In this document: positions 6,111 to 51,873 of the stretch, one piece after another
Position numbering within the stretch: the first letter of the stretch is position 1
Layout of the letters: each line of letters opens with the position of its first letter
Source: Planctomycetota bacterium
Lineage (GTDB): Bacteria; Planctomycetota; Planctomycetia; Isosphaerales; Isosphaeraceae
NCBI GenBank assembly: GCA_021791715.1
Contig: JAJYWB010000009.1
Location: 41,272 to 105,271, forward strand
DNA: 64,000 nt
Reading direction: 5' to 3'
Made by a program: the position numbers and the translations under genes
The notes under the pieces: model-generated
The model's input: the letters and a program-made list of their open reading frames with translations, nothing else
What the model was told of the DNA's origin: nothing
The model's database searches: none

Positions 6111-6185
6111 ACCACGGATTTAGCCGTAAGAGTAACAATGCTTATTAGTTGCAATAATAGTTGTGAAGGGTTAGCTGTTTATCCA

Positions 6186-6960: not shown

Positions 6961-7210
6961 TAATGTATAACAATACAATGGATCGATTGATTCGCGAGGT
7001 CGCGTCGTCGAAGCCGTCGTAGTGCGCAAAATCGACGTGATGGATGAAATCGTCGCTTCAGTTCGTTTGAAATTGGAAATACACGCCCGCGGCGCCGCCG
7101 TGTGCGTGAGATCCGGAGGAACAGGAGGTCGAATCGAGCCAGCTCGAAGGAGATACCGAGACGATTCGATATCCGCCGCGTTGGAAAATCGGTTTCGATC
7201 GACTCGCCTC

Positions 7211-7502
7211 GAGCGATGATGCAAAAAATCAACACGATCGCCACGATGATTTCATAATATACGGATATTATAGCGTACAATCTCTCAAAATCCGCAGAAA
7301 AACAAGCCTTTTCATTCATCAGTAACCCCACTCCAAAAAAATCGAGAAAAACCAAAAACGGGTCTTGCAATCCGATCGCGCGGTCGTTAGCGTAAGGATT
7401 TTAGATCCATCGATGTGATTCGGAATTTCTCGATTCACCTATCGATCGATCCTCTCTCGGGCGGGCCTTCGCCGCCCCCCGCGTCGTCCTCAGGTTTGGG
7501 TC
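7211..7502 (+). promoter_or_regulatory. conserved ~290-bp non-coding leader element, copy A (second copy at 48042-48332)
   Basis: Colinear nucleotide identity with 48042-48332. Shared blocks include aaaaatcaacac, aaaaacaagc, aaaacgggt(c/a)ttgcaatcc, gatgtgattcgga, cgatcgatcctctctcgggcggg, cccccgcgtcgtc(c/t)tc(a/g)ggtttgggtc. Lies 131 bp upstream of the ATG at 7633. Confidence 0.8.
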
Positions 7503-7632
7503 AAGAGAATGTATCTCCGGGAGGGCCAGGCGTCGACCGAGCCGACATTTTTCAATTCAGGAATAAGAAACGGCACACATGACCGTTCGCTCTTACAATG
7601 AGTTCGCGTCGCATGAACTAAGGATGCAATAG

Positions 7633-9000
7633 ATGAACTCACATGAAATTGCGAATTCGAGTACGTTCGACTCTAAGGGAATGCTTTCCGATCAACATCA
7701 TTGCGCGAAAGTTTTAACCAGAATGGACGATGCTTGTACGTACACGTGGAATTATCGCAACGAGATGACGGGATTCAGCGAGAAGAATTCGTCGGGGACG
7801 GTGATCTCTTCGGGAACGTATACGTATGATTCGCTCGATCGTCGCATCGGCGTCGACGAGACATCGGGCGGAACGACGACGCAGACGTGGATCGTGTACA
7901 ACGGGAATTCAAACACGCCTTACGCGCAGTTCAACGGCTCGGGCACGCTTTTGGAGCGTTATCTCGAGGGACCGTCTTACTTTCCGGGAGTGACGGGGAT
8001 GATTGCGCGCACGAACGCCTCGGGCCTGACCGACTGGTACTTGACGGGCAAACTCGGCTCGGTGCGCGACATCGTCAATACGTCGGGGACGGTGATCGAT
8101 CACATCTCTTTCGGAGCGTTCGGTTCGATCCGCGCCGAGACCAATCCGAGCTCGAGGAGCCAATTCAAGTTCGACGGCATGCAGAACGATTCGATCACAG
8201 GGTTGTACAACGATTGGCATCGGGGGTATTCGTCCACAAATGGTAGGTTCGAATCATTCGATCCGATGTCTTTTCAATCGAAGGAGACCAATCTCTATCT
8301 CTTCGTGGAGAACGGTCCAATCAACAATCTCGATCCAACAGGAGATATCATCGATTCCATCCTCGAAATGGAATATGGATTTGCCTCACAAAATAACATT
8401 CTGGGTCATCATGGAGGATTCGGCGGTGGGCATGGCGGTATCGGCGGAGGACACGGCGGATTGGGAGGTGGGCAAGGAGCCGGAGGTGGTGGACATGTAG
8501 GGATCGGCGGTGGCCATGGAGGCTTCCCAGGAGGTGGACATGGAGGATTGCCGGGAGCTGGACATGGAGGACTTCCAGGAGGTGGTCATATCGGATCACC
8601 CCGAGTGGGAAATAACCCTGGACATCCATCGCATACACCACCATCTACTGTAACAATTGGTCTTACAGGAGGTGGAGGTACGGTTCACATCGGAATTGAT
8701 CCAGGAAGCGATGGAGCTGTTACGACCACTCCAAATGATCCAAATCCTGGAGTCACACAAATCACCGGCTCGTTAGGAGGAAGTTGGGCTCCTCCTTACG
8801 GTAATCCTTTCAATCCTAATTTTGGTGGTGGAATCTATTACAATCCTCGATGGGGGACGCCTTTTTTCCCATTCAATGTCGGCAATACACCGATCGGATT
8901 TAATCCACCTGGATTTCCTATCGCCATTCAAGGTCCATTGATTCCAATCCCTGGACCACTCGGTCCGTTCGGCCCGAACGGACCTTGGTTTGATCCTTGA
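7633..9000 (+). CDS. orphan RHS fragment: terminal YD repeats + RHS repeat-associated core + Gly/His/Pro-rich C-terminal domain
   Basis: 'YTYDSLDRRIGV' YD repeat. Core signature 'GLYNDWHRGYSSTNGRFESFDPM...NLYLFVENGPINNLDPTGD'. Then GHHGGFGGGHGGIGGGHGG... and a Pro/Gly/Asn/Phe-rich tail. No N-terminal RHS body or signal peptide; ORF opens right after a stop. Confidence 0.75.
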   Translation: MNSHEIANSSTFDSKGMLSDQHHCAKVLTRMDDACTYTWNYRNEMTGFSEKNSSGTVISSGTYTYDSLDRRIGVDETSGGTTTQTWIVYNGNSNTPYAQFNGSGTLLERYLEGPSYFPGVTGMIARTNASGLTDWYLTGKLGSVRDIVNTSGTVIDHISFGAFGSIRAETNPSSRSQFKFDGMQNDSITGLYNDWHRGYSSTNGRFESFDPMSFQSKETNLYLFVENGPINNLDPTGDIIDSILEMEYGFASQNNILGHHGGFGGGHGGIGGGHGGLGGGQGAGGGGHVGIGGGHGGFPGGGHGGLPGAGHGGLPGGGHIGSPRVGNNPGHPSHTPPSTVTIGLTGGGGTVHIGIDPGSDGAVTTTPNDPNPGVTQITGSLGGSWAPPYGNPFNPNFGGGIYYNPRWGTPFFPFNVGNTPIGFNPPGFPIAIQGPLIPIPGPLGPFGPNGPWFDP

Positions 9001-9039
9001 TTCTGATATATTTCCTTTATCCCATAAAAGGAGACTCCG

Positions 9040-11016
9040 ATGTCGATTTTATTTATATCCTTGTTCATCATTACTCAATCTTCCGACGTCGATCGGAATG
9101 ATTCAAGCTCGAACTTGATGAATGCGCCGGAAACCAAGAATTCGGTATTACAAGAGCGCATCAATCGAGCGTTATCGGCCGAATCCCAAGGTGATTCGGC
9201 GCTTCGTTCGCGAGAATTGATCAAATCGATTTTGATCGATCCGGATAACATAAAGGCTCGCGGCTTGCTCGGTTTCGTTCGATTCGATTCGAAGTGGATC
9301 AAGCCCGATCGTATCGGAGTCGATATGGCGCGATCCGCCGTGGATAGCGCGCTTTATAAAGAATATGAAACAATCAAATCCAAAACAAAAAACAACGCCG
9401 ACGATCAGTGGAAAACCGCGATTTGGTGTGAGGAACATGGATTATCCGAAGAGGCTCGGGCTCATTTTCACGTCGTCGGCTACCTCGATCCCACCAGAAC
9501 CGCGGCTTGGAATAAACTGGGATTTAAAAAATATCATGGCGAGTGGATGTCCGAATCGGATCGAAAGGAGATGATCGCCGAAGAACAAACGAGACGTAAA
9601 GCCGACGAATATTGGACGAAGCGTCTTTCGAATTGGAAAAAGATGCTGGCGATTCCTTCACAACGCGATCGAGCGCATTTATACCTTTCGACGGTCGACG
9701 ATCCGACGGCGGTTCCCTCGATTCGGCGGATCTTGATAGCGGGCGACGCGGATTGTCAGATCGAGGCGATCAAGATTTTGAAAAAAATCGACACGATCGA
9801 GGCGTCGGTCGCTTTGTCGACTTTATTGATCCACGGTCGTAATCGGGAGGTGGTCGATCGGACCTCCGATGAACTCAAAAAGAAACCTATCGATGATTAT
9901 CTACCTTTCTTAATTTCAAGATTAACGCATGAACTGAAGTACGAGATCCATTATTCCTCATTAACGGGAATGCCCGACGAAATGGTCGTCGATTTCGGAG
10001 ATTTTTTCGTTAAACGAAAATATGAATACAAAAAAAGTTTGCCTCAAGATACGATTTTTATGCTCAATAAGATGAAACGCCTCAACATCGATCCGTTCGA
10101 TCCTTCGGTTCGAAATTATCTTGAATCGCATCACGTCACAGCGCTCGAAAATTTCGTGAACGATTTTGATTTTATGAAAGACGACTACGGGTTTTTCAAT
10201 CCGAAATTCGCCGTGACCGGTAAAGCGTCGACCGGAATCCTATTCGGCAAGTCGTTTTACAACAATATCGACGAGTATCAAAGGTCCAATATGATAACTT
10301 TAAATAACATCCTGACAGACATAGAATTCATTAAGATATTCAACGGAGCGAGCCTCGTCACAAATCAAAGGATTATACATTATCTGGTCGAAATTTCGGG
10401 CAAAAATTTCGGCGCGAACTCGAAAGATTGGATGGAATGGTTTATTAAATACTCCGCGTATTCAACCGCATCGACGAACACAAGACTCTTAATTAAGCCT
10501 ATATTTGATCAGCTTGTGCCGAATTACTACACGCCGAATTACCTGAGAACACGATCGACGTTTTGTTTCGCTAAAGACACTCCGGTCGTTTGCGTTCAAG
10601 GATATAAATCGATTCAATCTTTGAAACCAGGCGATTTAATTTTGTCCCAAGACGTGACGAACGGCGAATTGAGTTTCAAGCCCGTTTTACGGGCAATAAG
10701 CAATCCGCCCCAACCCGCGATCGATATCGATTTCGGAAGAGATAAGATCACATCGACAGATATCCATCGTTTCTGGATCTCCGGCAAAGGCTGGGCGCCC
10801 GCTCGAGACTTGCATCCAGGCGATCGAATTCGCGCTTTGAACGGCGTTCTCGAGGTCAAAAAGATCGAACATCGTCCGGTTCAACCCGTTTTCAATCTCG
10901 TGGTCGCGGAGAATCACGACTTTTTCGTCGGTCATTCGGCCGCTCTCGTGCACGACAACGATTACGCTCCGCGTGTCGAGAGACCGTTCGATCGCGTCTC
11001 GAATGATTCGCGATGA
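9040..11016 (+). CDS. secreted hypothetical protein with C-terminal Hint (Hedgehog/intein-like) domain
   Basis: Signal-like N-terminus MSILFISLFIITQSS. C-terminal ~140 aa run from 'CFAKDTPVVCVQGYKSIQSLKPGDLILSQD' (Cys-1 block) through 'TDIH' (TxxH block) to 'HDFFVGHSAALVHDND' (terminal HN-like block). Only ~18 aa follow. Distinctly lower GC than the flanks. Confidence 0.6.
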   Translation: MSILFISLFIITQSSDVDRNDSSSNLMNAPETKNSVLQERINRALSAESQGDSALRSRELIKSILIDPDNIKARGLLGFVRFDSKWIKPDRIGVDMARSAVDSALYKEYETIKSKTKNNADDQWKTAIWCEEHGLSEEARAHFHVVGYLDPTRTAAWNKLGFKKYHGEWMSESDRKEMIAEEQTRRKADEYWTKRLSNWKKMLAIPSQRDRAHLYLSTVDDPTAVPSIRRILIAGDADCQIEAIKILKKIDTIEASVALSTLLIHGRNREVVDRTSDELKKKPIDDYLPFLISRLTHELKYEIHYSSLTGMPDEMVVDFGDFFVKRKYEYKKSLPQDTIFMLNKMKRLNIDPFDPSVRNYLESHHVTALENFVNDFDFMKDDYGFFNPKFAVTGKASTGILFGKSFYNNIDEYQRSNMITLNNILTDIEFIKIFNGASLVTNQRIIHYLVEISGKNFGANSKDWMEWFIKYSAYSTASTNTRLLIKPIFDQLVPNYYTPNYLRTRSTFCFAKDTPVVCVQGYKSIQSLKPGDLILSQDVTNGELSFKPVLRAISNPPQPAIDIDFGRDKITSTDIHRFWISGKGWAPARDLHPGDRIRALNGVLEVKKIEHRPVQPVFNLVVAENHDFFVGHSAALVHDNDYAPRVERPFDRVSNDSR

Positions 11017-11072
11017 GAAGGATTCGCATTATTCACCAATAACCTCGATATTATTTTCTTGGAGATTCGATT

Positions 11073-12569
11073 ATGACTCATCCTCGTTCATTTATGACAC
11101 TCTTTTTCTTCATCTTCACGATTGCATCGAACGGATTCGGGCAGACTGCGAACGATTTATTACAAAAAGCGGTCGCCTTGATAGCCGAAGACAAGATCGA
11201 CGAGGCGATCGAATCGCTCAATCGTTCTATCGCATTGGATCCTTCAATTTCAAGAGCATATAGTCACCTCGGTTTCTGTCTTATTGATAAGCAAGTATCT
11301 ACAAAAACTATCGATTGTTTCGAAAAAGCGATCAAGCTTGATCAAAAAGATTTTCTTCCTCATTTTTACCTGGGAACTTATTATATGATGCAATTGGAAA
11401 AATATGATAGCGCTCTTAATCATTTTCTACAAAGCATCGATTTATATCCGGTTTTTGATGTGTCTTATTTGTATTCTGGAATCTGCTCTTTAAATTTAAA
11501 TAAAGATGATGATGCAATGAAGTACATAATTAAAGGCTTAACTCTAATACAAAACAAGCAAAGTTCCTATAAAGGATTATTCTACTTTTATAAAGGATTA
11601 ATTGAACTTCAATCCGGTCGTTTTGATTCAGCGGAAAACGACTTGAAAAACTCGATGAAAATGATCGGAGATCCTAAAGTCTATCTTCTACTCGGCTCTT
11701 TGTCTGATATTCAAGGCGATCATTCCGAATCGATAGCATACAACGCGATTATATTAAAAAATGATATGGAACTACTAAAATCATATAATACAAAAACTAA
11801 TATAGGTGCGGTCGTGTTTAAAACCGATCGGATCAATCAGTCGAATCAACTTGTTGTTTTGGGTGCGGCGTATCATCGCATAGGAGATATGGATAAGGCG
11901 TTGAATCGACTAAATAGAGCCTTGCGGATCGTGGAAAACAACTCATTCGCGTTGACCGAACGCGCATATCTCTATTTGCATTGTGGAAATCTTGAAGCAT
12001 CTATCAATGATCTGAATAAATCCATGGAAATTTGCCCCTCCAAATCGAAAAATTACCTATTAAAATCGGCGGCGGAGATAACGATCAATCCCAAGGACGC
12101 TCCGGAACTCGCCAAAAACTTCGTCAAATTACGTTCCTGGAAGGATCCGGATTCGACGATCGCCACGATAATCGGTTCGCTCGGGGCGATTAAGGCAGGG
12201 GACAAAACGACGTCGACGTCTCTGATAGACGAGGCGATCAAACACTCCAAAAAGAACGTGTGGCCCTATCCGCTCCTCAAGTATCTTCGCGGAGAATTCG
12301 ATGAGAATCTACTCAATAAATCGGCTCGTACCCCCGATCAAAAAAGCGACGCTCAAGCCGTTATCGGTTTGATCGCGGTCGCTCGCGGTAGAAAAGACAA
12401 GGCGTCTGAGCATTTTCATTGGCTCCTCAAACAAGGAAATCCTCGATCGCTCTATTTTGATATCGCTATGAATGAATTGAGAAAAATTGAAGGAAGGAAA
12501 AGCGTCGACGACGCCGTCGCACAATATTGCTCAAAACTCTATAAATCATACATGAACACAAAAAAGTAA
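11073..12569 (+). CDS. TPR repeat protein with signal peptide
   Basis: Signal MTLFFFIFTIASNGFGQ. Multiple 34-aa TPR-like repeats (AYSHLGFCLIDKQ..., HFYLGTYYMMQLEKYDSAL..., YLLLGSLSDIQGD...). AT-rich. Confidence 0.75.
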   Translation: MTHPRSFMTLFFFIFTIASNGFGQTANDLLQKAVALIAEDKIDEAIESLNRSIALDPSISRAYSHLGFCLIDKQVSTKTIDCFEKAIKLDQKDFLPHFYLGTYYMMQLEKYDSALNHFLQSIDLYPVFDVSYLYSGICSLNLNKDDDAMKYIIKGLTLIQNKQSSYKGLFYFYKGLIELQSGRFDSAENDLKNSMKMIGDPKVYLLLGSLSDIQGDHSESIAYNAIILKNDMELLKSYNTKTNIGAVVFKTDRINQSNQLVVLGAAYHRIGDMDKALNRLNRALRIVENNSFALTERAYLYLHCGNLEASINDLNKSMEICPSKSKNYLLKSAAEITINPKDAPELAKNFVKLRSWKDPDSTIATIIGSLGAIKAGDKTTSTSLIDEAIKHSKKNVWPYPLLKYLRGEFDENLLNKSARTPDQKSDAQAVIGLIAVARGRKDKASEHFHWLLKQGNPRSLYFDIAMNELRKIEGRKSVDDAVAQYCSKLYKSYMNTKK

Positions 12570-12663
12570 AATTATAACACAATATTATTTTCTATTCTTA
12601 TCACATATTGATTAGAATGTTTTGTTTCATTAAGACCGATATTATTCGACTATCGCCGTTTTC

Positions 12664-13863
12664 ATGATGAAAATCCTCTTCGCTTCAGCCCACTGCGTGA
12701 TCGATCCATCAAGCGGCGCGGCGATAGCAACCCGCGAACTCCTCGAATCGCTCGTCGCGCTAGGAGACGATTGCCGCGCGTTCTGCATGGGAATCTTCGA
12801 TTACCACCACGAAACACGACCCGAAGACTTTTTATCGTCGCTCGAAGCCGAGATTCATATGGCGCTCGCCGAAGCCGCTTCAGGCGCCGAGGTATCGATC
12901 TTCGACCTCGCGTTAAACGGCGTGAGAACGACGATCGTTCCCACGCAATCGAGCCGCGCCGATCGATCGCCGACACACGCCGAATCGATCGCATTTCTCG
13001 ATCTCTACGAAGTCATCCTCGATCGCTTCCAACCCGACCTCGTTTTAACCTACGGCGGGCATCCCGTCGGTATCGAGCTGATGAAACGCGCTCGCAAACG
13101 GAACATCGCCGTCGTTTTCCAGATCCATAACTTCGCGTATAAAGATCGCCAGGCGTTCGCATTCGCGTCACATATCCTTGTTCCTTCACAATTCAGTCGC
13201 GATTATTATCAAAGAACGCTGGGACTCGACGCCAAGGCGATCGACCCTCCGTTTCGTCTCGATCGCACGTTCGTTGCCGAAACCGAGCGTAAACCTCGTT
13301 ATCTCACATTCGTCAATCCCGATCCTTCGAAGGGGTTCACGTTATGGGCTCGGATCGCTTATGAACTCAGTCGTCGCAGGCCCGATATCCCGCTCCTTGT
13401 CGTTGAAAGCCGTGGCAAGGCGTTCGATCTCGTTCACCTTGATATCGATCTCTCGGATCACCCCAATTTGCATCGCATGGCGAATACGCACGATCCCAGA
13501 CACTTTTATCGCGAGTCGCGCGCGATCTTAATCCCTTCGCTTTTTCTCGAATCGTTCGGCCTGACGGCGCGCGAGGAGCTCGTCAATTCGATCCCCGTGC
13601 TCGCGTCGGATCGGGGCGCCTTACCTGAAACGCTCGGATCGGCGGGATTCACATTTCCGATCCCTTCGCGATACACGCCGATTACGCTCGAAGCGCCGAC
13701 CGCCGAGGAAATCTATCCCTGGATCGATAAGATCGAACGCCTTTGGGACGATCCGGCGTTCGAGGCCAAGGCTCATGAAAAAGCGTGGAACGAATCGCTG
13801 AGATGGGATCCGATCATAATCGCAAAACGATATCACGAGCATTTTGAGTCGATCGCGCGGTGA
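12664..13863 (+). CDS. glycosyltransferase family 4 (GT-B, group 1)
   Basis: C-terminal 'PSLFLESFGLTAREELVNSIPVLASDRGALPE' matches the GT4 E-x7-E/donor-binding region. N-terminal Rossmann half. Confidence 0.7.
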   Translation: MMKILFASAHCVIDPSSGAAIATRELLESLVALGDDCRAFCMGIFDYHHETRPEDFLSSLEAEIHMALAEAASGAEVSIFDLALNGVRTTIVPTQSSRADRSPTHAESIAFLDLYEVILDRFQPDLVLTYGGHPVGIELMKRARKRNIAVVFQIHNFAYKDRQAFAFASHILVPSQFSRDYYQRTLGLDAKAIDPPFRLDRTFVAETERKPRYLTFVNPDPSKGFTLWARIAYELSRRRPDIPLLVVESRGKAFDLVHLDIDLSDHPNLHRMANTHDPRHFYRESRAILIPSLFLESFGLTAREELVNSIPVLASDRGALPETLGSAGFTFPIPSRYTPITLEAPTAEEIYPWIDKIERLWDDPAFEAKAHEKAWNESLRWDPIIIAKRYHEHFESIAR

Positions 13864-13995
13864 GAGCAATCCCGCGTCGATCTCGTTTTGAAAAATGAGC
13901 CGTTTCATGCACTGGGTATCGATATCATAAAAATTATATTCATATATTAATTACTTTTATTATTAATGATATTTCATATCTGCATTTTATCACAT

Positions 13996-14988
13996 TTAGA
14001 TTGAAGCGCACGCCGGAGTTTTGTCGCTCTTCGGGGGCGACGCCGCGGGGCGCACGGGAGCGTCGATCGTCCAATCCCACGCCCACACCTGGTTGCGGCC
14101 GGCGTTCTTGGCCGCGTAAACCGAGCGATCGGCGCGGCGGAGCAGATCGCACGGCGAATCGGCCGAAAAATCGGTCGCGCACGCGACGCCGAGGCTCGCC
14201 GTCACGGTGATCATCGATTCGTGACACGGGACGATCGTTCGCTCGAACGACTCGCGGAATCGCTCGGCGAGGTCGATCGCCCCCTCGAGACCGCACCGGG
14301 GCGCGAGAACCACAAGCTCCTCGCCGCCGTACCGAGCGACAAAATCGGCGCTCCGCGCCGTCCTCCGCAACATCCGAGCCGATTGCCGCAAAACCTCGTC
14401 CCCCGCGGCGTGACCATAACGATCGTTGATTTGCTTAAAATGATCAAGATCAATAAATAAAGCTGAGAATGGATCGTTCGTCCGTTTGCACGTGTCCCAG
14501 ATTCTCCGAGCCTGTTCCTCGAGCGCGTGGCGATTCGCCAGCCCCGTCAGGCCGTCGATGTGCGCCAGGCGTTCGAGCAGGTCTTGGAGGTATTTCGTCC
14601 GGAGCGCGGCGCGAACGCGAGCCTGGAGTTCGGTCGGATCGAACGGTTTGGAGATGAAATCGACCGATCCCGAATCGAGCCCGCGAACCTTCTCGGCGGT
14701 TGAAGCCGCGGCGGAAAGGAAGATCACCGGGATCGACCGCGATCGCGGAACTTCTTTGATCCGCTTGATCACCTCGAAGCCGCTCATTCCCGGCAGCCGC
14801 AATTCGAGCAGGATCAGGTCGGGACGATACGTCGTGCAGGCGCCCAAACCCGAGATCATATCGAGCGCTTCAAAAACCTCGCAGCCGTCGGAGGTGAGCC
14901 AGTTGCGGAGGAAGCGACGATCCGCGGCGTCGTGCTCAATCAACAGCACGCGACGCGAAAGATCCGAATCGCCAAGATCGAACGTCAT
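13996..14988 (-). CDS. response regulator receiver + GGDEF diguanylate cyclase (PleD-like)
   Basis: REC domain (VLLIEHDAADRRFL...LILLELRLPGMSGFEV...IPVIFLSA). GGDEF domain with 'RYGGEELVVL' (GGEEL variant) and RxxD-like region. Confidence 0.8.
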   Translation of the reverse strand: MTFDLGDSDLSRRVLLIEHDAADRRFLRNWLTSDGCEVFEALDMISGLGACTTYRPDLILLELRLPGMSGFEVIKRIKEVPRSRSIPVIFLSAAASTAEKVRGLDSGSVDFISKPFDPTELQARVRAALRTKYLQDLLERLAHIDGLTGLANRHALEEQARRIWDTCKRTNDPFSALFIDLDHFKQINDRYGHAAGDEVLRQSARMLRRTARSADFVARYGGEELVVLAPRCGLEGAIDLAERFRESFERTIVPCHESMITVTASLGVACATDFSADSPCDLLRRADRSVYAAKNAGRNQVWAWDWTIDAPVRPAASPPKSDKTPACASI

Positions 14989-15516: not shown

Positions 15517-17577
15517 ATGGCTGAAGAAACGATCGACGCCGGTCTACTCGAGCAAACCAAAACTCAAATTCGCAAGCTCGTCGCCGAAATCGCCGAGCTC
15601 GCCGAATCCGACGTGCAACCTCCGGTCTTCCACACCGAGTTCCTCAATCGCGTGGTCGCCGCGGTCGCGGCTTCTGGCGGCGCGATCTGGCTGCTCGACG
15701 GTCGCAACAACCTTAGGCTCAACCATCAGGTGGAATTTCGCCTCACGGGTTTGCTCGACGGTCGCGTTCGATCGCAACCGCACGACGGCCTTTTGGGCTG
15801 CATGCTCAAGGCGACTCAACCCGTGATCATCCCGCCGGGGGCGGGAGTCGAGGGGGCTCCGGGCGCCGGCAATCCGACGGGTTTCGCGCTCATCATCGCG
15901 CCTTTGATCGTCGACAAACAGGTCGTCGGTCTGGTCGAAGTGTTGATGGACCCCAACCGCCAGGCCGCGACCCAAAAAAGCACGCTTCGGTTCATTAACG
16001 ATCTGTGCGATCTCGCCGAGGGTTATCTCAAAAATCGCCAGATGCGGCAGATTGTTTCGCAGCAGCAATTGTGGAATCAGCTCGAGGGGTTCACGCACGC
16101 GATTCACGGATCGCTCGACCTTAAAGAATCGGCTTACGCGGTCGTCAACGACGGTAAAAGGCTTGTCGGGTGCGATCGTTTGAGCGTGGCGCTCAAGATC
16201 GGCGGTCGGATCGTCATCGAGGCGGTGAGCGGTCAAGAGGTCGTCGAGCAGCGCGCCAATTTGATTCGCGAATTGACCAAGCTTTGCAAAGTCGCCGTGC
16301 TTTCGGGCGACGACCTCGTCTACACGGGCTCGACCGAAACGTTCGCTCCCGAAATTCGTGATGCGCTCGAGGCTTATGTCGACGAATCGGGGGCGAAAGC
16401 CGTCGTCATCACGCTGTTGTTCAAACCGGAAACCGATCCCACCAAAGATAAGATCGCGTTCGGCGCGTTGATCGCGGAACAAATCGGCGACGAAGTGGCG
16501 CCGACCGATATGCATGCGCGGACGGAAGTTGTGGCGCGGCACGGGTCGACGGCGCTTTGGAACGCACGCGAGCACGACAAGATCTTCCTTCGTCCGCTGC
16601 TCAAGATGATCGGTTCGCCCACCAAGTTTTTCCGGGGTAGAACGCTCGCCAAAATCGTCGCGGGGCTGGTCGCGGTCGCGGCGATCATCCTGATTCTCGC
16701 GTTCGTTCCCTGGAAACTGACGATCGAGGGGCGCGGAGCGCTTTGGCCCGATAACAAGCACAACACTTACGCGCCTTTGCCCGGCAAGGTTGTTCAGGTG
16801 TTCGCGGATCACGGGCAGAAGGTGAAAGAGGGGGATCCGCTCGTCAAGCTCGAGAGCAAAGAGATCTCGAAGAAATACTTTGAAATCATCGCTCAGCGCG
16901 AGGAATCGATCGTCAAATCGAAGAATTTGGCGAATCAGATCACCAAGGCGAAGGCCGACGATCGCGTGCAGTTGCAGGCGCAGCTCGCCGAGGAGGAGAT
17001 CAAGCTCGAAAGCGCCAAAGATCAGCTTGAAATCCTTCAGGATCAGCTCGCGTCGCTGGAGATCAAGGCGCCGCACGCGGGGATCATCACCACCTGGGAA
17101 CCGAAGAAAAACTTCATGAATCGTCCCGTCGACGTGGGAACCGAGCTCCTTTCGGTTCTTGATGTCGACGGCGAATGGGTGATGGATGTTGATGTACCCG
17201 ACGACGACATGAGCCCCGTGCGTCGAGCTTACGCTCAGCTTATGAAAGATATCGAAGCGGGACGGAAGAAGCCGGGATCGACGCTTTCGGCGTATTTCGT
17301 CTCGGCGACCGATCCCGAACACAGATATCCCGGCTACGTTCGGAAGATCTCGTCGAAAGCCGAACTTGTCGACACCAAACACGTGGTGAAGGTGACGATC
17401 GGCTTTAGCGATAAGGTTCGACGCGAATACGAGGCCAAGAACGGCCCGCTTCGGCCCGGCGCCGAGGTTCGCGCCCGGATCGATTGCGGTCAAGCGCGGC
17501 TCGCGTATGTCATCTTCCGCGACGTCATCCACGTGTTCTATGAAACCGTCTTGTTCCGATGGCCGTTTATGAACTGA
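15517..17577 (+). CDS. tandem GAF sensor domains - TM helix - HlyD-like membrane-fusion/biotin-lipoyl domain fusion protein
   Basis: Two GAF-like segments (GGAIWLLDGRNNLRL...GLVEVLMDP and VNDGKRLVGCDRLSVALKIGG...). TM helix LAKIVAGLVAVAAIILILAF. Then 'PGKVVQVFADHGQKVKEGDPLVKLES', a long coiled coil, and 'IKAPHAGIITTWEP' hairpin/beta-barrel blocks of HlyD/MFP proteins. Confidence 0.65.
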   Translation: MAEETIDAGLLEQTKTQIRKLVAEIAELAESDVQPPVFHTEFLNRVVAAVAASGGAIWLLDGRNNLRLNHQVEFRLTGLLDGRVRSQPHDGLLGCMLKATQPVIIPPGAGVEGAPGAGNPTGFALIIAPLIVDKQVVGLVEVLMDPNRQAATQKSTLRFINDLCDLAEGYLKNRQMRQIVSQQQLWNQLEGFTHAIHGSLDLKESAYAVVNDGKRLVGCDRLSVALKIGGRIVIEAVSGQEVVEQRANLIRELTKLCKVAVLSGDDLVYTGSTETFAPEIRDALEAYVDESGAKAVVITLLFKPETDPTKDKIAFGALIAEQIGDEVAPTDMHARTEVVARHGSTALWNAREHDKIFLRPLLKMIGSPTKFFRGRTLAKIVAGLVAVAAIILILAFVPWKLTIEGRGALWPDNKHNTYAPLPGKVVQVFADHGQKVKEGDPLVKLESKEISKKYFEIIAQREESIVKSKNLANQITKAKADDRVQLQAQLAEEEIKLESAKDQLEILQDQLASLEIKAPHAGIITTWEPKKNFMNRPVDVGTELLSVLDVDGEWVMDVDVPDDDMSPVRRAYAQLMKDIEAGRKKPGSTLSAYFVSATDPEHRYPGYVRKISSKAELVDTKHVVKVTIGFSDKVRREYEAKNGPLRPGAEVRARIDCGQARLAYVIFRDVIHVFYETVLFRWPFMN

Positions 17578-17694
17578 TTCACACGGCTGAAACCTCTTTT
17601 TGTTGTTACGACCCTGATTTGATTGTCGAGGTCGTCGTGATGAACGACCCGGCCGGCCTGCAATCCGTTCCATCCGATACCGGAGATCCAAGAG

Positions 17695-18696
17695 ATGTCG
17701 ACGTCCCTGAAATTCGCGATCGCGGCGGCCATGACGATCGGCGTCGTGTCGATCGCGGCGACGGCTCAAGAGATCGGCGATCGTTCCGCCGACGGCCAAA
17801 AATCGTTCATCGTGCACGACGGAGAAGTGAGCTGGCTGTCGAAATCGGACGTCGCTGCGCTCCGTGAAGGCGTGCTGGAAAAAATGGAGCTTCATGTCGG
17901 CAGCACGGTGGAAAAAGACGGAGTCGTCGGCGTTCTGAACGATCGGATGGCGAAGCTCGCGGTGCGGAAGGCGATGATCGTCGCCAAAGAAACCGCTCCT
18001 GTTGAAAAGGCCGACGCCGAACGTCAACGCGCGCTCAAATCGCTGGCGCGGATGGAACGTTTGAACGGCAAAATCCCCAACACCGCGTCGAAAGAAGAGA
18101 TCGAAAAAGCCGAGGCCGAGGTGATGGTTTCGGAAGCGGCGATTCACGAGGCGCGAGAAAAACAGACCGAGGCGCAGATCGAACTGAGCATCGCGCAGGA
18201 ATCGCTCGAGGAACACACGATCAAGGCGCCGTTTTCGGGTGTGATTATTGAGCAGCATAAGTATCCGGGCGAGAGCGTTCGAGCCAACGAGCCCGTCGTC
18301 AGGCTGGCGAATCTCGATCGATTGCGCGTTCACTGTTACGTTCCGCTCGAATACGCCTTCCGGGTTCGCGTGGGGATGCTCGTCGACGTGAAACCCTCGA
18401 TCCCCGACATCGCCTTGCCGATCGAACGCAAGCTTTTCCGCGGCAAGATCACGTTTGTGGATCCCGAGGTTCAGGTCGCGGGCGAAAAGAAACGACGCGT
18501 CTTCGTCGACGTGGAAAACAACGAGGAACGCGAACTTCAGCCGGGAATGGAAGCCGATTTGAAGATTTACATCGATCCCGAATCGGCGCCTCCGCCTCCG
18601 TCCGATATGATCAAACGAGTCGCCGAGACCGGTACCGGGGCGAAGGAACCGCTCCCGTCGAACGAAACCCAACCGGCTCGGAGCGTGAAACGATGA
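17695..18696 (+). CDS. HlyD family periplasmic adaptor (membrane fusion protein-like), signal peptide
   Basis: Signal MSTSLKFAIAAAMTIGVVSIAATAQE. Lipoyl half 'LHVGSTVEKDGVVGVL', coiled coil, 'IKAPFSGVIIEQHKYPGESVRANEPVVRLANLDRLRVHCYVPL'. Confidence 0.65.
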   Translation: MSTSLKFAIAAAMTIGVVSIAATAQEIGDRSADGQKSFIVHDGEVSWLSKSDVAALREGVLEKMELHVGSTVEKDGVVGVLNDRMAKLAVRKAMIVAKETAPVEKADAERQRALKSLARMERLNGKIPNTASKEEIEKAEAEVMVSEAAIHEAREKQTEAQIELSIAQESLEEHTIKAPFSGVIIEQHKYPGESVRANEPVVRLANLDRLRVHCYVPLEYAFRVRVGMLVDVKPSIPDIALPIERKLFRGKITFVDPEVQVAGEKKRRVFVDVENNEERELQPGMEADLKIYIDPESAPPPPSDMIKRVAETGTGAKEPLPSNETQPARSVKR

Positions 18697-18793
18697 CTTT
18701 CGCGCATCCGACCCGAGGCGACCGTTTCCACGCGATTTCGCGCATTCGCGGCCGATCGCTTTCGCTCGATCCTCGATCAAGGAGCGTCGTTTT

Positions 18794-20977
18794 ATGAGTT
18801 CGGCGCCTTCGCTAGCACCCGTCATGCCCGTCGGCCAGGCCGCGGAGGAGCTTGTCGTCAAGCTCCGTCCAGACCTCGTCGTCAGACCCCAGTTTTACGA
18901 GGGGATGACGCACTACGTGGTGAAAGATCCGATCGCGCTGAAATATTTTCGCTTCAAAATCGAAGAATATTTTTTGCTCGAGCAGTTTGACGGCAAGAAG
19001 TCGTTGCAAGACGTGAAGCGAGCGTTTGAGAAGAAATATCGCCCGCAGACGATCTCGGTCGAGGATCTCGTTCGGTTCGTTTCGCAATTGCACGAGGCGG
19101 GGATCGTTCAGCTCGATACCCCCGAGCAGGCGAAGGTGTTGATCGACCGTCGCCGCAAGCGATTCTGGAAGCAGATCGGTCAATTTTTCGCCAACATCTT
19201 ATATATCAAGATTCCCGTCTGCGACCCCGAACGACTGCTGACCTGGATGTACCCGTTTTTCCGCTGGATTTTTACGCCTTATTTCGTGGTCGCGAGTTTC
19301 GGGCTGATGTTCGCGGCTTTAACGCTGGTTTTCAGCCAGTGGTCGACGTTCGCATCGCGGCTCCCCAATTTTGAAAGCTTTTTTAATTGGCGCACGATTT
19401 TTTATTTTTGGACGAGCTTGGCGGTCGTGAAGGTGATTCACGAATTCGGCCACGGGCTGACGGCCAAGCATTACGGCGGCGAGGTTCACGAGATGGGCGC
19501 GCTGTTGCTCGTGCTCACCCCCGCGCTTTATTGCGACGTGACCGACAGTTGGCTTCTCCCCAATAAATGGCATCGCATCTGGATCTCGGCCGCGGGGATT
19601 TTCGTCGAATGTTTTCTGGCGAGCATCGCCACCTTTATTTGGTGGAACACCGAGCAGGGGCTGCTGAACAGCTTATCGTTAGCAACGATGTTCATATGCT
19701 CTGTTAACACGATCATGTTCAACGCGAATCCATTGTTGCGATACGACGGATATTACGTGATGGCCGACTGGCTTGAGATTCCCAATTTAAGGATCAAGAG
19801 CACGCAGTTTTTCAGTTATTTGTTTCAAGAGAAAGTTCTCGGGCTCGAGATTCCGGTGCAAAGTTATATGCCGCGATCGCGGCGGTTCTTGTTCGTGTTT
19901 TACGCGGTCGCGAGCTACCTGTATCGCTGGTTCGTCTCGTTCAGCATCATTTTTTTCCTGTACCGATTCCTCAAGCCGCACGGGCTCGGGTCGCTGAGCA
20001 TGTTGCTCGCGCTCGGCGCGCTCGTCCCCCTCGTCGGCATGCCTTTTTATCAAATGATCAAGTTTGCGAGAACTCCCGGGAGGCTGCGCAAGATGAAAAA
20101 AGGACGAACGTTCGCGTTCGTATCGGCCTGCGCGGCGTTGCTCGCCGCGATCATGCTGATCCCGACTCCGCTTCGCGTCCAGGGAACGCTGGTTCTCACG
20201 GTCGCCAAGCCGGCTCGGATTTACACCGAGATCCCCGGCCGGCTCGTCACTCTCAACGTGCGCGACGGCGATTGGGTGAAGAAAGACGCGGTGATCGCCA
20301 ATCTATCGAACCCGGAAAAGCAAATCGAACAGCGCGCCCAACAAGAGCTTTTCGACGCCAACATGGCCAAATACCGCTGGTTCGTCCGCGGCAGCGATCT
20401 CGCTTCACGCAAGGTCGCGATGCAATTCCTGGAACTCGCCAACAAACTCGAACCTTCGGTTGAAGAAATTAACAAGCAAGTGAATAGCTTAAATTTGATC
20501 GCTCCGCGCGAGGGGCGGGTGATCGGCCTTCCCGATTCCGACACCCTCGGCCAGTGGATCAAGCCCGATAAGCCCGTGTGCGAGGTCGGCGACCCGACCA
20601 AAATCGAGGCGCATTTGATTCTTGATCAGGGAGATATCGACCTGATCCGGGTCGGCAATGTCGCTCGCGTCAAGATCTACGGAGATTCGGAAACGACGTG
20701 GAAATCGAAGGTCGGAGAGATCGCCAAGCGAAACCGCGACGACATCCCTCCCGAACTGACGAGCAACGCCGGAGGCGAGATCGCCACCAAAAGCGACCCC
20801 AAGACGGGCCAGGCGAAACCCCTCTCGGCGGTTTACGAGGTGATCATCCCGATCGACAACCCCGAACAGATCCTTCATCCCGGCCAGCGCGGCTTCGCCA
20901 AGATCGACGGCGGCACGCATCGCCTTGGCTGGTGGCTCTGGCGGGTCGTCGCCAAAACGTTCCACTTCACGCTCTAA
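18794..20977 (+). CDS. three-part fusion: PqqD-like (RRE-like) N-domain + M50-like intramembrane metalloprotease core (HEFGH) + C-terminal HlyD-like adaptor domain
   Basis: N-terminus 'YVVKDPIALKYFRFKIEEYFLLEQFDGKKSLQDVKRAFEKKY...EDLVRFVSQLHEAGIV' is PqqD-like. Polytopic membrane region with 'VIHEFGHGLTAKHYGG' (HExxH). C-terminus 'LVLTVAKPARIYTEIPGRLVTLNVRDGDWVKKDAVIANL...IAPREGRVIGLP...VARVKI' has HlyD biotin-lipoyl/beta-barrel blocks. Confidence 0.65.
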   Translation: MSSAPSLAPVMPVGQAAEELVVKLRPDLVVRPQFYEGMTHYVVKDPIALKYFRFKIEEYFLLEQFDGKKSLQDVKRAFEKKYRPQTISVEDLVRFVSQLHEAGIVQLDTPEQAKVLIDRRRKRFWKQIGQFFANILYIKIPVCDPERLLTWMYPFFRWIFTPYFVVASFGLMFAALTLVFSQWSTFASRLPNFESFFNWRTIFYFWTSLAVVKVIHEFGHGLTAKHYGGEVHEMGALLLVLTPALYCDVTDSWLLPNKWHRIWISAAGIFVECFLASIATFIWWNTEQGLLNSLSLATMFICSVNTIMFNANPLLRYDGYYVMADWLEIPNLRIKSTQFFSYLFQEKVLGLEIPVQSYMPRSRRFLFVFYAVASYLYRWFVSFSIIFFLYRFLKPHGLGSLSMLLALGALVPLVGMPFYQMIKFARTPGRLRKMKKGRTFAFVSACAALLAAIMLIPTPLRVQGTLVLTVAKPARIYTEIPGRLVTLNVRDGDWVKKDAVIANLSNPEKQIEQRAQQELFDANMAKYRWFVRGSDLASRKVAMQFLELANKLEPSVEEINKQVNSLNLIAPREGRVIGLPDSDTLGQWIKPDKPVCEVGDPTKIEAHLILDQGDIDLIRVGNVARVKIYGDSETTWKSKVGEIAKRNRDDIPPELTSNAGGEIATKSDPKTGQAKPLSAVYEVIIPIDNPEQILHPGQRGFAKIDGGTHRLGWWLWRVVAKTFHFTL

Positions 20978-21098: not shown

Positions 21099-21169
21099 GG
21101 ATCATGATTGAAGTTTCCGCTCGCGAATGAACTTCTCGCGCGGCATGTCATTCAAAGCAACAACAGAAG

Positions 21170-21243
21170 GGTGGGTGACGGGATTTGAACCCGCGATATC
21201 CAGATCCACAATCTGGCGCCTTAACCGCTAGGCCACACCCACC
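21170..21243 (-). tRNA. tRNA-His (anticodon GTG) with genomically encoded G-1; CCA not encoded
   Basis: Reverse complement reads G-GTGGGTG-TG-GCCT-AGCGGTTA-AGGC-G-CCAGA-TTGTGGA-TCTGG-ATATC-GCGGG-TTCAAAT-CCCGT-CACCCAC-C. Cloverleaf holds. Anticodon loop TTGTGGA has GTG in the anticodon position. The extra 5' G pairs with discriminator C. Confidence 0.9.
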
Positions 21244-21831
21244 GTAACGTTCGGGCGATTATAAAACCGCCGTGATTCGGACGTCAAGCGATCCGAGAAG
21301 GTTCACGAAAGAGAGCCGCCCGTAAGTTAACGCATCCTGACCGAAAGCCGACCGACCGACCGAATCACCTTAAAATACACACACCAAAATCACCTAAAGA
21401 ACATGCTTATTCAAATGATATTACGGAGAGTCGAGTTCCTCGCGCCTACCGGTCCACACGCCCGCGACAAGAACGGCCGCGGCGATCGAACAAACAGGTT
21501 CCTTGCGATTCGGCGCGGGGTTCGCCCAAACGAATCGCCCGACGACCGTTCGGCGATTTCTCGCGCGAGTTCATCGGCGATTCGGCGAGGGTTTCGTTCG
21601 AGAAAAACGCGTTCGAGGGAAATGTTTTCGTGGGAATCATTGAGTGGAGACACGCGAGATTCCTACGAGCGAATCGTTATGAATTACGCGACAAGCCCGG
21701 GACGACTTTGGAATCGATCTTGCGAAACCGAACGTGATGTCGATTTAATGGATTCACGCAAGCAAATCGGCGATGTCCGCGCGGATCGCTCTCGACCCCT
21801 TCGGCGCGGCCGGTTTCTGGAGGCTCCGGGC

Positions 21832-27651: not shown

Positions 27652-28932
27652 ATGATGAATCCGCCTCTCGAGGTCGTTCGAGCTCGGTCGCGCGTGTTGA
27701 AGGCTTCGGCGCCGACGTGTAAGCTCGGCTTTTTGGCGAAGTTGTCTCTTTTCGCGTCTGGGGAAGGGCGAATCTTGAGCGATCCGATGCGTCGAACATC
27801 ATTCACCGCGGCGCCGGCGTTGATCGCTTTCGCCTTCGTCTTTTGCGGGCTCGTCGTCGCCCGACCGGCTTACGCTCAACCCGCCGAAACGAAACAAGGC
27901 GCCAAGATCTCGGCCGAGCGCGAAGCCGACGACTCCTCCCAAGAACCCGCCGCGGGCGCCCCTAAATCGTTCCTCGAATGGATGGCCAAGGCTTCGGGAC
28001 CGATTGGAATCGTTATTTTATTACTATCTTTTTATTTGATTGCGCTCGTCGGCTGGATGTTTTTGGAATACCGCCGCGCGGTGGCGATTCCCGACTTGCT
28101 GACGCGCGAACTCGCCGAATTGCTGGCGCAAAAGCGATTCAACGACGCTTTCCAGCGACTCGCGGGGGATCGATCGTTTTTATCTCGAGCCGTCGCCGCG
28201 GGCGCCCGCAAGCTCGATCGCGGCCGCGACGAGGCGATCCGAGCGATCGAACTCGTCGTCGACGACGTCACCATGGAAATGGAACACCGATCCACATATC
28301 TGGCCACCGTCGGAACGCTCGGCCCGATGATCGGACTTGTGGGAACGGTTTACGGTATGATTATGAGCTTTCGCGAGATGGCGGTCGAGGGGGTTTCGCC
28401 CCAGGCGAGCAGGCTCGCCGAGGGAATCTCGACGGCGCTCTTCGCCACGCTTGAAGGGATCGCGATATCAATACCTGCAATTTATTTTCATGCGTTTTTC
28501 CGTAATCGGATCGCTCGGCTTTCGCTCGAGGTCGCGATCGTCGCCGAGGCGATGCTCGATCAGTTCGCGGTCGGAAGCCGTCCGGGACGCGCCGCGGCGC
28601 TCATCTCCCATGCGTTTCAGAGCACGACGCGAAACTCGAGGCCGCCGATTCCCCCGCCCCCCACGCTCTCGGTCCATGTCCAATCGTCGAATGAAGACGA
28701 CTCGGGCGATTCCGATCCCCCGGCGATCGACGGCCCAAGAATCGACATGTCCGCCGCGATCGACGATCTTCGCATCGAAAACGGAGACGATCGCCGCGAC
28801 GATCCAAACGACGACGAAGGCCGAAACGTTCCCCGTGATCCGGCAAATCGTGTCGATACGACGATCGAAAACGGCCCCGCGAATCCGGGCGATTCGGCGT
28901 CCGAATCCGCCGAGAATTCCGCAGAACGTTGA
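27652..28932 (+). CDS. MotA/TolQ/ExbB proton-channel family protein with long N- and C-terminal extensions
   Basis: Core 'TYLATVGTLGPMIGLVGTVYGMIMSF...GISTALFATLEGIAISIPAIYFHAFFRNRIARL'. Signal/TM N-terminus. Acidic ~130-aa C-terminal tail. Confidence 0.8.
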   Translation: MMNPPLEVVRARSRVLKASAPTCKLGFLAKLSLFASGEGRILSDPMRRTSFTAAPALIAFAFVFCGLVVARPAYAQPAETKQGAKISAEREADDSSQEPAAGAPKSFLEWMAKASGPIGIVILLLSFYLIALVGWMFLEYRRAVAIPDLLTRELAELLAQKRFNDAFQRLAGDRSFLSRAVAAGARKLDRGRDEAIRAIELVVDDVTMEMEHRSTYLATVGTLGPMIGLVGTVYGMIMSFREMAVEGVSPQASRLAEGISTALFATLEGIAISIPAIYFHAFFRNRIARLSLEVAIVAEAMLDQFAVGSRPGRAAALISHAFQSTTRNSRPPIPPPPTLSVHVQSSNEDDSGDSDPPAIDGPRIDMSAAIDDLRIENGDDRRDDPNDDEGRNVPRDPANRVDTTIENGPANPGDSASESAENSAER

Positions 28933-48332: not shown

Positions 48333-48455
48333 GATCGTTAAGGATCATTCGATCATAGCGATGATTCCTTGCGAAAATAGGATTGGCCTCGTTCAATAAT
48401 CCTCAGCGCACCAAAACGTTCAATTTCGCGTACTTCCATTCGAATAGCGCTTTGA

Positions 48456-49535: not shown

Positions 49536-49567
49536 CGTTGGACACGTTTCAACAAGGAGAGCAATCC

Positions 49568-51808: not shown

Positions 51809-51873
51809 AGACCCCCGATCGACGACCCGATGTACATCGACGAAACTCCCATTTGTCAGAAACGAGATATATT

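Follow-up and report, generated by a model that had tools for sequence, protein, structure and literature searches.

In the 64,000-nucleotide stretch of Isosphaeraceae DNA analysed here (Planctomycetota; contig JAJYWB010000009.1; hereafter the window), three consecutive open reading frames (ORFs) on the plus strand encode proteins that each end in an HlyD-type periplasmic adaptor protein (PAP) module. The ORFs, designated g1 (15517-17577, 686 aa), g2 (17695-18696, 333 aa) and g3 (18794-20977, 727 aa), are separated by 117 nt (g1-g2) and 97 nt (g2-g3), and a terminator scan of the gaps between them found no intergenic terminator-like site. HlyD_D23/HlyD_3 scored above the Pfam cut-offs in the C-terminal part of each protein; GAF in g1 and Peptidase_M50 in g3 also passed theirs, while PqqD remained below its cut-off in the window sequence. 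The ORF coordinates and Pfam matches agree with an initial annotation of this DNA, which had described three plus-strand genes with HlyD-type C-terminal domains. The three co-encoded PAP-fold proteins, referred to below as the triad, carry at their cytoplasmic or membrane side a RiPP recognition element (RRE; RiPP, a peptide synthesized by the ribosome and then modified post-translationally) joined to a site-2 protease (S2P) in g3, and GAF-type domains in g1. The triad, with the same three subunit types, is conserved in Planctomycetota and in Alpha-, Beta- and Gammaproteobacteria.

Domain architecture of the three subunits

The g3 protein was resolved by Pfam, NCBIfam, alignment and structural models as a fusion of RRE, S2P, transmembrane (TM) helix and PAP, in line with the single PqqD-M50-HlyD polypeptide of the initial annotation. 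Its cytoplasmic RRE/PqqD-like winged-helix domain (approximately aa 20-110; 18851-19123) scores 14.9-18.5 bits against Pfam PqqD in the window sequence, below the cut-off of 23.4, though the family profile bears out the resemblance. PqqD is matched (E<=1) in 28 of 35 g3 family members, with a best E of 5e-9, and a profile of the domain retrieves the lasso-peptide RRE TfuB1 (E 6.8e-4) and PqqD from the PDB; its three-stranded sheet followed by three helices can be superposed on known RREs. The polytopic S2P/M50 core (approximately aa 145-426; 19226-20071) scores 29.2 against a Peptidase_M50 cut-off of 27.2. Within it, H216, E217 and H220 of the zinc-binding motif HEFGH (aa 216-220; 19439-19453) are invariant across 62 diverse homologues, and so are N310, N312, P313, D318 and G319 of the motif NANPLLRYDG (NxNPLLRYDG; aa 310-319; 19721-19750), the third zinc ligand region of S2Ps. 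A first full-length AlphaFold2 model, built with 35 close homologues, gave a poor protease core (predicted local distance difference test, pLDDT, 66), and aa 1-435 were remodelled from a 72-sequence alignment (pLDDT 77.7). The g3 model shows the S2P core fold, with the canonical S2Ps RseP and SpoIVFB as the closest solved folds; the HEFGH region is thus an M50 core, as had been read from the letters.

A K/R-rich cytoplasmic loop (8 K/R in aa 423-438) precedes the last TM helix of g3 (aa 439-457; 20108-20164), an arrangement that assigns the PAP module to the periplasmic side and the RRE to the cytoplasmic side. The PAP module (20165-20974) was assigned by HlyD_3/HlyD_D23 and by Foldseek, in which the C-terminal 270 residues of the model matched MacA, AcrA, MexA, ZneB and EmrA (E 2e-12 to 1e-9); its hairpin helices, aa 507-531 and 536-564, are modelled at pLDDT 85-90. 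Over aa 44-416, g3 matches the NCBIfam model of the daptide intramembrane metalloprotease, NF041824, with an E of 8e-52 and 176.6 bits against a cut-off of 300. It is more weakly related to the YydH/LiaK epipeptide proteases and has weak matches to bacteriocin/NHLP-type HlyD accessory proteins. Clustered at 50% identity, the family with the full-length architecture numbers 13,099 clusters at E<=1e-3 and still 4,485 when the threshold is E<=1e-30; nearly all of the best 150 clusters are full length.

The g1 protein is a GAF-GAF-TM-PAP subunit, as defined by its ORF, Pfam, BLAST and hhalign. Its first GAF domain (aa 43-168; 15643-16020), cytoplasmic, scores 27.2 bits against a cut-off of 22.4, and its single TM helix (aa 380-398; 16654-16710; Kyte-Doolittle peak 2.95) is the sole strong hydrophobic segment outside the GAF core and divides the GAF part from the PAP module. 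The membrane-proximal second GAF-like domain (approximately aa 195-345; 16099-16551), also cytoplasmic, went undetected in the Pfam scan of the window protein itself and was recognised through orthologues: the region has a GAF match in 6 of 8 planctomycete orthologues, two of them above cut-off, and scores 50.1 and 26.9 bits in the Methylosinus and Pseudosulfitobacter orthologues. The two GAF domains and one TM segment originally assigned to g1 therefore stand directly for the first GAF domain and the TM helix, and through orthologues only for the second GAF. An origin of the second domain as a duplicate of the first was rejected, hhalign giving a probability of 1% and no detectable similarity. 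The PAP module of g1 (lipoyl, hairpin and beta-barrel; 16711-17574) is supported by HlyD_D23 at aa 419-569, HlyD_3, Biotin_lipoyl_2 and the NCBIfam model RND_mfp (E 1.7e-15).

The g2 protein is a small PAP with an N-terminal signal or anchor; it scores 111 bits against RND_mfp (TIGR01730; cut-off 94.9), has a hydrophobic N-terminus (aa 5-27) and contains no further domain, which fits the plain HlyD protein described initially. The alpha-helical hairpin of g1 and g2 was judged from sequence alone. A similar conserved aromatic, amphipathic C-terminal tail is present on g1 (...YVIFRDVIHVFYETVLFRWPFMN; 17502-17574) and g3 (...GWWLWRVVAKTFHFTL; 20927-20974), not on g2, and the BLAST match between the g1 and g3 PAP modules spans this tail and the preceding beta-barrel strands.

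Conservation and gene neighbourhood of the triad

The closest relatives of g3 are Isosphaeraceae proteins, 70-79% identical, including one from Singulisphaera acidiphila. To survey planctomycete loci, one genome per species was scanned for g3 relatives, and the loci of the best 80 of 497 relatives were examined. All 80 are labelled Planctomycetota bar one 'Bacteroidales' metagenome-assembled genome (MAG) and one unclassified bin, and among them are Isosphaeraceae, Pirellulales, Gemmataceae, Planctomycetales and Kuenenia-labelled MAGs; the best 120 profile matches were all from Planctomycetota. The order g1-g2-g3 on one strand was found in at least 50 of the 80 loci, at 25-40% identity; the remainder are mostly contigs ending at the edge, and about seven are g3 paralogues without g1. 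The genes flanking the triad vary from locus to locus, and clustering of the flank ORFs of these loci revealed no conserved ABC, RND, MFS or TolC gene.

Two variations of the planctomycete loci were observed. The adaptor at the g2 position is enlarged to 590-800 aa in L013:3532-5604, L018:2038-4350, L043:7488-9824, L050:7442-9856, L055:7790-9940 and L067:3954-5981, which belong to Limnoglobus, to one Gemmataceae MAG and to several MAGs of unclassified Planctomycetota; domain scans of two of these adaptors, those of L013 and L050, showed a C-terminal WD40 beta-propeller that presumably lies in the periplasm. Some g3 paralogues without g1 lie directly downstream of a secretin-domain protein (L071:8665-9666) or a DUF481 protein (L061:8821-9951). 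We take DUF481 to be a putative outer-membrane beta-barrel family, and the two proteins are possible alternative outer-membrane partners.

Precursor peptides and regulators were also sought beside the triad. The small-ORF set, 2,188 ORFs of 15-120 aa from the flanks and intergenic gaps of all loci, yielded a single many-locus cluster, consisting of DUF3467 and antisense shadows. The other clusters span 3-7 loci and resembled shadow ORFs, except for a 3-locus Isosphaeraceae cluster upstream of g1. An adjacent precursor peptide gene was accordingly rejected as a candidate, since no widely conserved precursor-like small ORF emerged from this clustering, and no tailoring enzymes were found near the triad in the 80 planctomycete loci. 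In the window, a response-regulator-GGDEF diguanylate cyclase (13996-14988, minus strand) is divergent from g1 across a 528-bp gap. This regulator adjoins the triad elsewhere only in a near-identical contig and is absent from every other locus; in Singulisphaera acidiphila its upstream position is occupied by an extracytoplasmic function (ECF) sigma gene. The non-conserved GGDEF gene and the lack of a precursor-like gene therefore argue against a RiPP cluster and against the functional link with the regulator that the initial annotation had raised, and the GGDEF protein was rejected as a partner of the triad.

When plasmids and secondary replicons were searched with g3 by tblastn, Alpha-, Beta- and Gammaproteobacteria proved to carry homologues that are full length (coverage 94-99%) and 25-28% identical, and 10 proteobacterial loci were examined in detail. 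In all 10 a same-strand ORF lies directly upstream; it encodes a protein of 492 to 16,239 aa, at least 1,400 aa in 9 of them, termed cargo here. A TolC gene is present in six loci, a truncated SecA-like gene in four and DUF3467 in two, and no ABC, RND or MFS gene lies within the system operon in any of the 10; Phyllobacterium has a separate opposite-strand ABC/HlyD pair of a type I secretion system (T1SS) about 5 kb away. Two arrangements were distinguished. In type A the cargo gene is followed in turn by TolC, a small PAP, a mid-size PAP (430-480 aa) and the g3-like gene; this type comprises E. coli IncF plasmids (cargo of 4,459 aa, DUF4347 and cadherin-like), Azospirillum (3,489 aa, DUF4347), Variovorax (16,239 aa), Cupriavidus metallidurans CH34 (at least 2,760 aa), Magnetospirillum (492 aa) and Phyllobacterium (1,412 aa; no TolC listed). 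Type B has the order cargo, (DUF3467), GAF-PAP (approximately 620 aa), g3-like, SecA-like, and comprises Methylosinus (8,847 aa; DUF3467, GAF-PAP, g3-like and SecA-like, then a small PAP and after it TolC), Pseudosulfitobacter (12,737 aa; the small PAP lies upstream and is divergent), Ensifer (3,345 aa or more) and Alisedimentitalea (8,148 aa).

The E. coli module (L084; NZ_CP081687.1, 44829-64580) consists of five abutting genes, encoding the giant DUF4347/cadherin-like protein, TolC, two PAPs and the RRE-S2P-PAP protein, and leaves no room for another. It is flanked by the insertion sequences (IS) IS5 and IS1 and occurs in 24 of 5,426 complete E. coli genomes at 99% identity or more, with 21 of 25 places plasmid-borne; the module looks mobile. 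An E. coli-type g3-like gene is also found on Citrobacter and Hafnia plasmids.

Homology between the two phyla extends beyond g3. The window g1 is orthologous to proteobacterial GAF-PAPs of 617-629 aa (BLAST E 5e-17 and 1e-10 to proteins of 621 and 629 aa), with the alignment running through the cytoplasmic region, and g2 is homologous to the 284-aa PAP beside TolC in Methylosinus (E 1.5e-11). By hhalign, the second GAF-like domain of g1 is homologous to the cytoplasmic domain of mid-size PAPs of type A (96%, E 4.8e-9) and to the type B domain (98%). Matches between the two phyla were likewise obtained for DUF3467 and for the SecA-like protein, which is 43-47% identical between them.

In 15 planctomycete loci a DUF3467 protein (approximately 105-125 aa; Pfam 88.7 bits) is encoded no more than 310 bp from the triad and on its strand. 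The gene lies downstream of g3 in a Pirellulaceae-like group (L019, L020, L022, L024, L027, L033, L042, L049, L059 and L082) and upstream of g1 in L030, L039, L045, L048 and L054, a group that includes two Kuenenia-labelled MAGs; the two proteobacterial copies are at L085:6690-7010 and L087:9711-10052. That its side varies by clade suggests selection for linkage rather than frozen synteny. No solved relative of DUF3467 was found by single sequence or profile; the protein may act as a chaperone, an adaptor or a substrate. The SecA-like gene (approximately 630-830 aa) adjoins the triad in about six planctomycete loci (L020:4499-6520, L022:4471-6507, L033:4180-6429, L074:2435-4489, L043:12330-14528 and L083:5777-7657) and is found in type B operons at L085:11168-13084, L087:14102-16084 and L095:14087-16045. 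Its product has the DEAD motor and, besides the preprotein cross-linking domain, the second nucleotide-binding domain. It aligns to approximately positions 20-550 of SecA models of about 790 positions, so that the C-terminal third is missing, and it reaches none of the SecA and SecA2 cut-offs. In Methylosinus the gene bears the name 'prepilin peptidase', apparently a mis-annotation.

Candidate leaders and other features of the window

In 5 of 7 N-termini of proteobacterial cargo proteins, a basic stretch is followed by a common short motif: ALESRQLFDGAAL in E. coli, ALEPRFMFDAAGA in Azospirillum, ALEARYMFDAAA in Variovorax, TLEPRVLLNAD in Methylosinus and FEPRVLLSAD in Pseudosulfitobacter. The motif is of the type described by NCBIfam NF012209 (LEPR-XLL domain, LEPR-8K), a 24-residue N-terminal model with a cut-off of 17 bits, which scores 31.0 for Methylosinus, 33.2 for Pseudosulfitobacter and 16.4, just under the cut-off, for Azospirillum. 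On direct reading, none of the proteobacterial cargo N-termini has a Sec-type hydrophobic core.

A comparable pattern was sought in Planctomycetota by scanning the first 90 residues of 774 gene-like ORFs flanking triads for at least four K/R followed by [LFMIV]E.R.[LMFIV][LMFIV]. This basic stretch with an LExRxLL motif occurs in 11 of the 774 ORFs, as against a mean of 1.8 and a maximum of 6 in 200 shuffles of the N-termini, and at a rate four-fold above that in the rest of the same proteins. The motif-bearing ORFs are large, with a median of 1,203 aa versus 410 aa overall, and their products contain RTX-type repeats, subtilisin-like or metzincin domains. Three lie directly beside triads: L020:13000-16476 directly follows SecA-like, g1, g2, g3 and DUF3467, L069:13359-16970 comes after g3, and the ORF in L012 is convergent with g3. 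We infer that the planctomycete LExRxLL and proteobacterial LEPR-XLL motifs are equivalent.

In the window, the motif scan identified one candidate cargo with a presumptive link to the triad, a 248-aa protein (35232-35978, plus strand) with a basic N-terminus followed by LEVSRLEDRDLLSA. It starts ...QLKSRRRSRRTTLEVSRLEDRDLLSAAP... and continues after the leader with two copies of a unit of about 50 residues, FRFxHDRFxGPVxxIGNLYExRFNNxFSGRxIRxQQNxFQGGQGSVxLGG, joined by a Pro/Gly-rich linker. The original statement that the window holds no precursor thus stands in that no small-ORF precursor is conserved, but it has to be amended by this one candidate export-leader ORF. The absence of a pump or TolC-like factor from the window was also confirmed: an ABC signature scan gave no hit within any real gene, BLAST found no TolC, and none of the 10 largest other ORFs checked is a transporter or outer-membrane factor, the remaining ORFs being partly annotated.

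Several further features of the window were recorded. A 1,105-aa antisense ORF (15544-18861, minus strand) over g1, g2 and the start of g3 was rejected as an arginine-rich shadow ORF typical of high-GC coding DNA and without independent support, and a role in anti-phage defence was dismissed after PADLOC returned no match for g1, g2 or g3. A search of 14-22 kb for regulatory RNAs and terminators found solely a tRNA-His (GTG; 21169-21242, minus strand) just downstream of g3, preceded by a near-consensus sigma-70-like promoter (TTGACG, 18 nt, TATAAT; 21169-21287, minus strand). A MotA/ExbB-family proton channel protein is encoded at 27652-28932 (plus strand), about 7 kb downstream of the triad, with nothing linking it to the triad, and is followed by three short ORFs (29004-29477, 29478-30005 and 29939-30703). 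Two stretches, 6001-14000 and 48001-54000, have a lower G+C content (0.41-0.50 versus approximately 0.58 elsewhere in the window) and may be acquired islands; the first contains a PT-HINT (pretoxin) protein (9040-11016) and an ORF that is TPR-like by reading (11073-12569).

Proposed function and comparison with known systems

Considering the domain content and the neighbourhoods together, we regard it as somewhat probable that the triad is the core, in the inner membrane and periplasm, of a TolC-type apparatus that spans the envelope without an ABC transporter and that secretes and N-terminally processes large leader-bearing proteins. In the proposed mechanism, the cytoplasmic RRE of g3 would dock the N-terminal leader of the cargo, i.e., the basic stretch with LEPR-XLL or LExRxLL, in the way that RREs bind RiPP leaders and that has been proposed for the daptide RRE-S2P peptidase. 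The S2P of g3 could then cut off the leader at the membrane, while the three PAPs would build a mixed ring bridging to an outer-membrane duct, TolC in Proteobacteria. The GAF-PAP subunit may couple a cytoplasmic ligand to assembly or gating, and the SecA-like motor and DUF3467, where present, would give energy and chaperoning. For the planctomycete studied here, this would place the genes for the duct, for the motor and for most of the cargo in other parts of the genome. The initial annotation had envisaged a signal-gated machine for peptide processing and export without a classical pump; the general idea and the domain calls have held, with a TolC duct now seen in the proteobacterial homologues, but the small-peptide cargo has not.

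A wider formulation, which we put forward tentatively, is that Planctomycetota and Proteobacteria share an unrecognised secretion class, in which three PAPs and a TolC-type duct serve giant extracellular cargo and an RRE-guided S2P replaces the ABC transporter, reading and removing a leader of the LEPR-XLL type. Equally provisional is the corollary that the truncated SecA-like motor and DUF3467 are optional accessories of this class, and, with the same reserve, in Planctomycetota it may be a general route for many large proteins with the basic stretch and LExRxLL. We class the proposed apparatus as a variant of tripartite envelope-spanning secretion; there is a substantial chance that it merits the name of a new secretion system. 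No description of the triad system, of DUF3467 or of LEPR-XLL function was found in the literature, in which subscription papers were under-covered, so that a prior description is possible.

Several observations weigh against the proposed apparatus. None of the 80 planctomycete triads has a TolC gene within 10 kb; BLAST of the window found no SecA-like or DUF3467 homologue any more than a TolC, and the window holds no giant ORF. The motif R-x3-L-x6-S/T at the PAP hairpin tip, which we take to be the TolC contact, has no match in the PAP modules of g1 or g3; it matched once in the window g2 and in 4 of 38 g2 orthologues, at scattered positions. The TolC-containing type A operons have no ATPase gene at all. 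Among the annotated cargo N-termini, 2 of 7 (Alisedimentitalea and Magnetospirillum) lack the leader motif, and NF012209 does not match the window ORF or most other planctomycete leaders (best 13.9 bits, none at the cut-off). The leader-like ORFs were sampled in triad flanks only, so that enrichment over the rest of the genomes is not demonstrable, and we infer the pairing of RRE and leader from gene neighbourhood only. The model of the protease core is only moderately confident, with pLDDT below 50 at aa 238-252.

Alternative functions were weighed against the same data. The complex might instead hold or process the N-terminus of a giant surface protein exported by another route, with an S2P cut, gated from the cytoplasm through the GAF-PAP, releasing or maturing it, a logic comparable to LapD/LapG control of LapA. 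The neighbourhood evidence for such a retention or release controller is identical to that for the secretion apparatus, the ATPase-free type A operons would suit it, and a cytoplasmic sensor fused to a periplasmic module fits inside-out signalling, as could the GGDEF regulator adjoining the triad in the window. However, that neighbour is not conserved, a Sec-type hydrophobic region is missing from the cargo N-termini, linkage to another secretion system was not seen, and a dedicated SecA-like motor co-occurs in one subtype; we judge this function unlikely. Export of small RiPP-like peptides, in which a short precursor would be bound by the RRE and stripped of its leader by the S2P before the PAPs pass the product to an outer-membrane channel, draws on the homology of the RRE-S2P module to the daptide leader peptidase (NF041824, E 8e-52), on its weaker kinship to YydH/LiaK and on the weak matches to bacteriocin/NHLP-type HlyD accessory proteins. 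Yet the NF041824 score falls well short of its cut-off (176.6 versus 300 bits), and apart from DUF3467 and antisense shadows the loci offer neither a family-wide small ORF nor, in the 80 planctomycete loci, tailoring enzymes. A phylum-wide triad with about 70% identity within the family and variable flanks is atypical for specialised-metabolite clusters, and the gene upstream in Proteobacteria encodes a protein of 492-16,239 aa, not a peptide. The small-peptide cargo suggested initially is thus not borne out, and a RiPP-like exporter appears distinctly unlikely.

Signalling by regulated intramembrane proteolysis is highly improbable in our estimation. Here the S2P would cleave a tethered regulator such as an anti-sigma factor, with the PAPs acting in the periplasm as sensors or size filters and the GAF domains providing the input on the cytoplasmic side; the fold similarity to RseP and SpoIVFB and the ECF sigma gene upstream of the triad in Singulisphaera acidiphila point that way. 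But no sigma/anti-sigma pair is conserved beside the triad, the RRE is a peptide-leader-binding module foreign to signalling S2Ps, and the linkage to TolC, SecA-like and giant proteins would be left unexplained. The least probable of all is a set of ordinary efflux adaptors for an ABC, RND or MFS pump encoded elsewhere, in spite of the database names 'HlyD family efflux transporter periplasmic adaptor subunit' and 'AcrA' and of PAP folds like those of MacA, AcrA and EmrA. No pump is linked to the triad in about 90 loci of two phyla, including the IS-bracketed E. coli module with its own TolC, g3 has its own polytopic membrane domain, and the adjacent genes encode proteins of 492-16,239 aa; nor did the literature yield a well-characterised efflux-adaptor set of this kind with a standard pump elsewhere, a possibility noted at the outset.

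If the proposed secretion apparatus is real, it would give a function to a family of 4,485 clusters whose members are now named 'efflux adaptor', 'hemolysin D' or 'putative peptide zinc metalloprotease', and would explain the exit of LEPR-XLL giants, some above 16,000 aa, and of leader-bearing large Planctomycetota proteins. It would extend the role of the RRE past RiPP biosynthesis into protein secretion and show that no ABC, RND or MFS transporter is needed to build a tripartite assembly of the TolC type. The question is open to direct test, given the versions in E. coli (IS-bracketed), Cupriavidus metallidurans CH34 and Azospirillum.

Among known systems, the nearest in working is the T1SS for giant adhesins (HlyBD-TolC and the LapBCE and SiiCDF types; see also PMC8277102). 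Both have TM-anchored HlyD-type adaptors, a TolC-family duct (in the operon at 6 of 10 proteobacterial loci) and a giant cargo, repeat-rich, Ca-binding or cadherin/Ig-like, encoded alongside. Unlike T1SS, however, the triad includes three different adaptors rather than one, its inner-membrane component is an RRE-S2P fused to an adaptor, with an optional SecA-like motor, and its candidate signal is N-terminal, of the LEPR-XLL type, whereas the T1SS signal is C-terminal. Because the homologous operons all lack an ABC transporter, the triad is not a T1SS; TolC, too, is absent from the window and the planctomycete loci.

The protease half has its closest parallel in the daptide leader peptidase MpaP, in which an RRE is fused N-terminally to an intramembrane S2P (10.1101/2023.03.08.531785). 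The module order is shared and the homology over aa 44-416 of g3 is clear, but g3 carries a TM helix and a PAP module in addition, and it is partnered by two more PAPs; neither daptide precursors nor MpaBCDM enzymes were found near the triad. In contrast to the canonical S2Ps RseP, SpoIVFB and MjS2P, g3 has no PDZ or CBS domain and carries an N-terminal RRE and a C-terminal PAP instead. Peptidase-containing ABC exporters (CvaAB-TolC, ComAB, NHLP) bear a C39 cysteine peptidase on the ABC transporter and handle small peptides with GG-type leaders. In these systems (TIGR01000, TIGR03794), as proposed for the triad, leader removal is tied to export via an adaptor and, in Gram-negatives, TolC; the triad differs in fusing the RRE-metalloprotease to the adaptor itself, without an ABC domain.

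Accessory SecA2 systems (TIGR03714, TIGR04221, TIGR04397) likewise dedicate a second SecA-like ATPase to particular cargo, which resembles the one proteobacterial subtype and several planctomycete loci, but the SecA-like paralogue described here lacks the C-terminal third, is accompanied by no SecY2 or Asp genes and is absent from the window. LapD and LapG exert inside-out control of the giant adhesin LapA, LapD being a GGDEF-EAL-HAMP protein and LapG a periplasmic cysteine protease. By analogy only, the triad shares with them a cytoplasmic ligand-binding domain joined through the membrane to a periplasmic module and, as proposed, proteolysis at the N-terminus of a giant adhesin; the proteins are unrelated, GAF-PAP standing against GGDEF-EAL-HAMP and S2P against a periplasmic cysteine protease. 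Finally, the PAP modules of the triad, genuine PAPs by family and fold, depart from usual ones in having neither the conserved RLS tip motif nor a linked pump.

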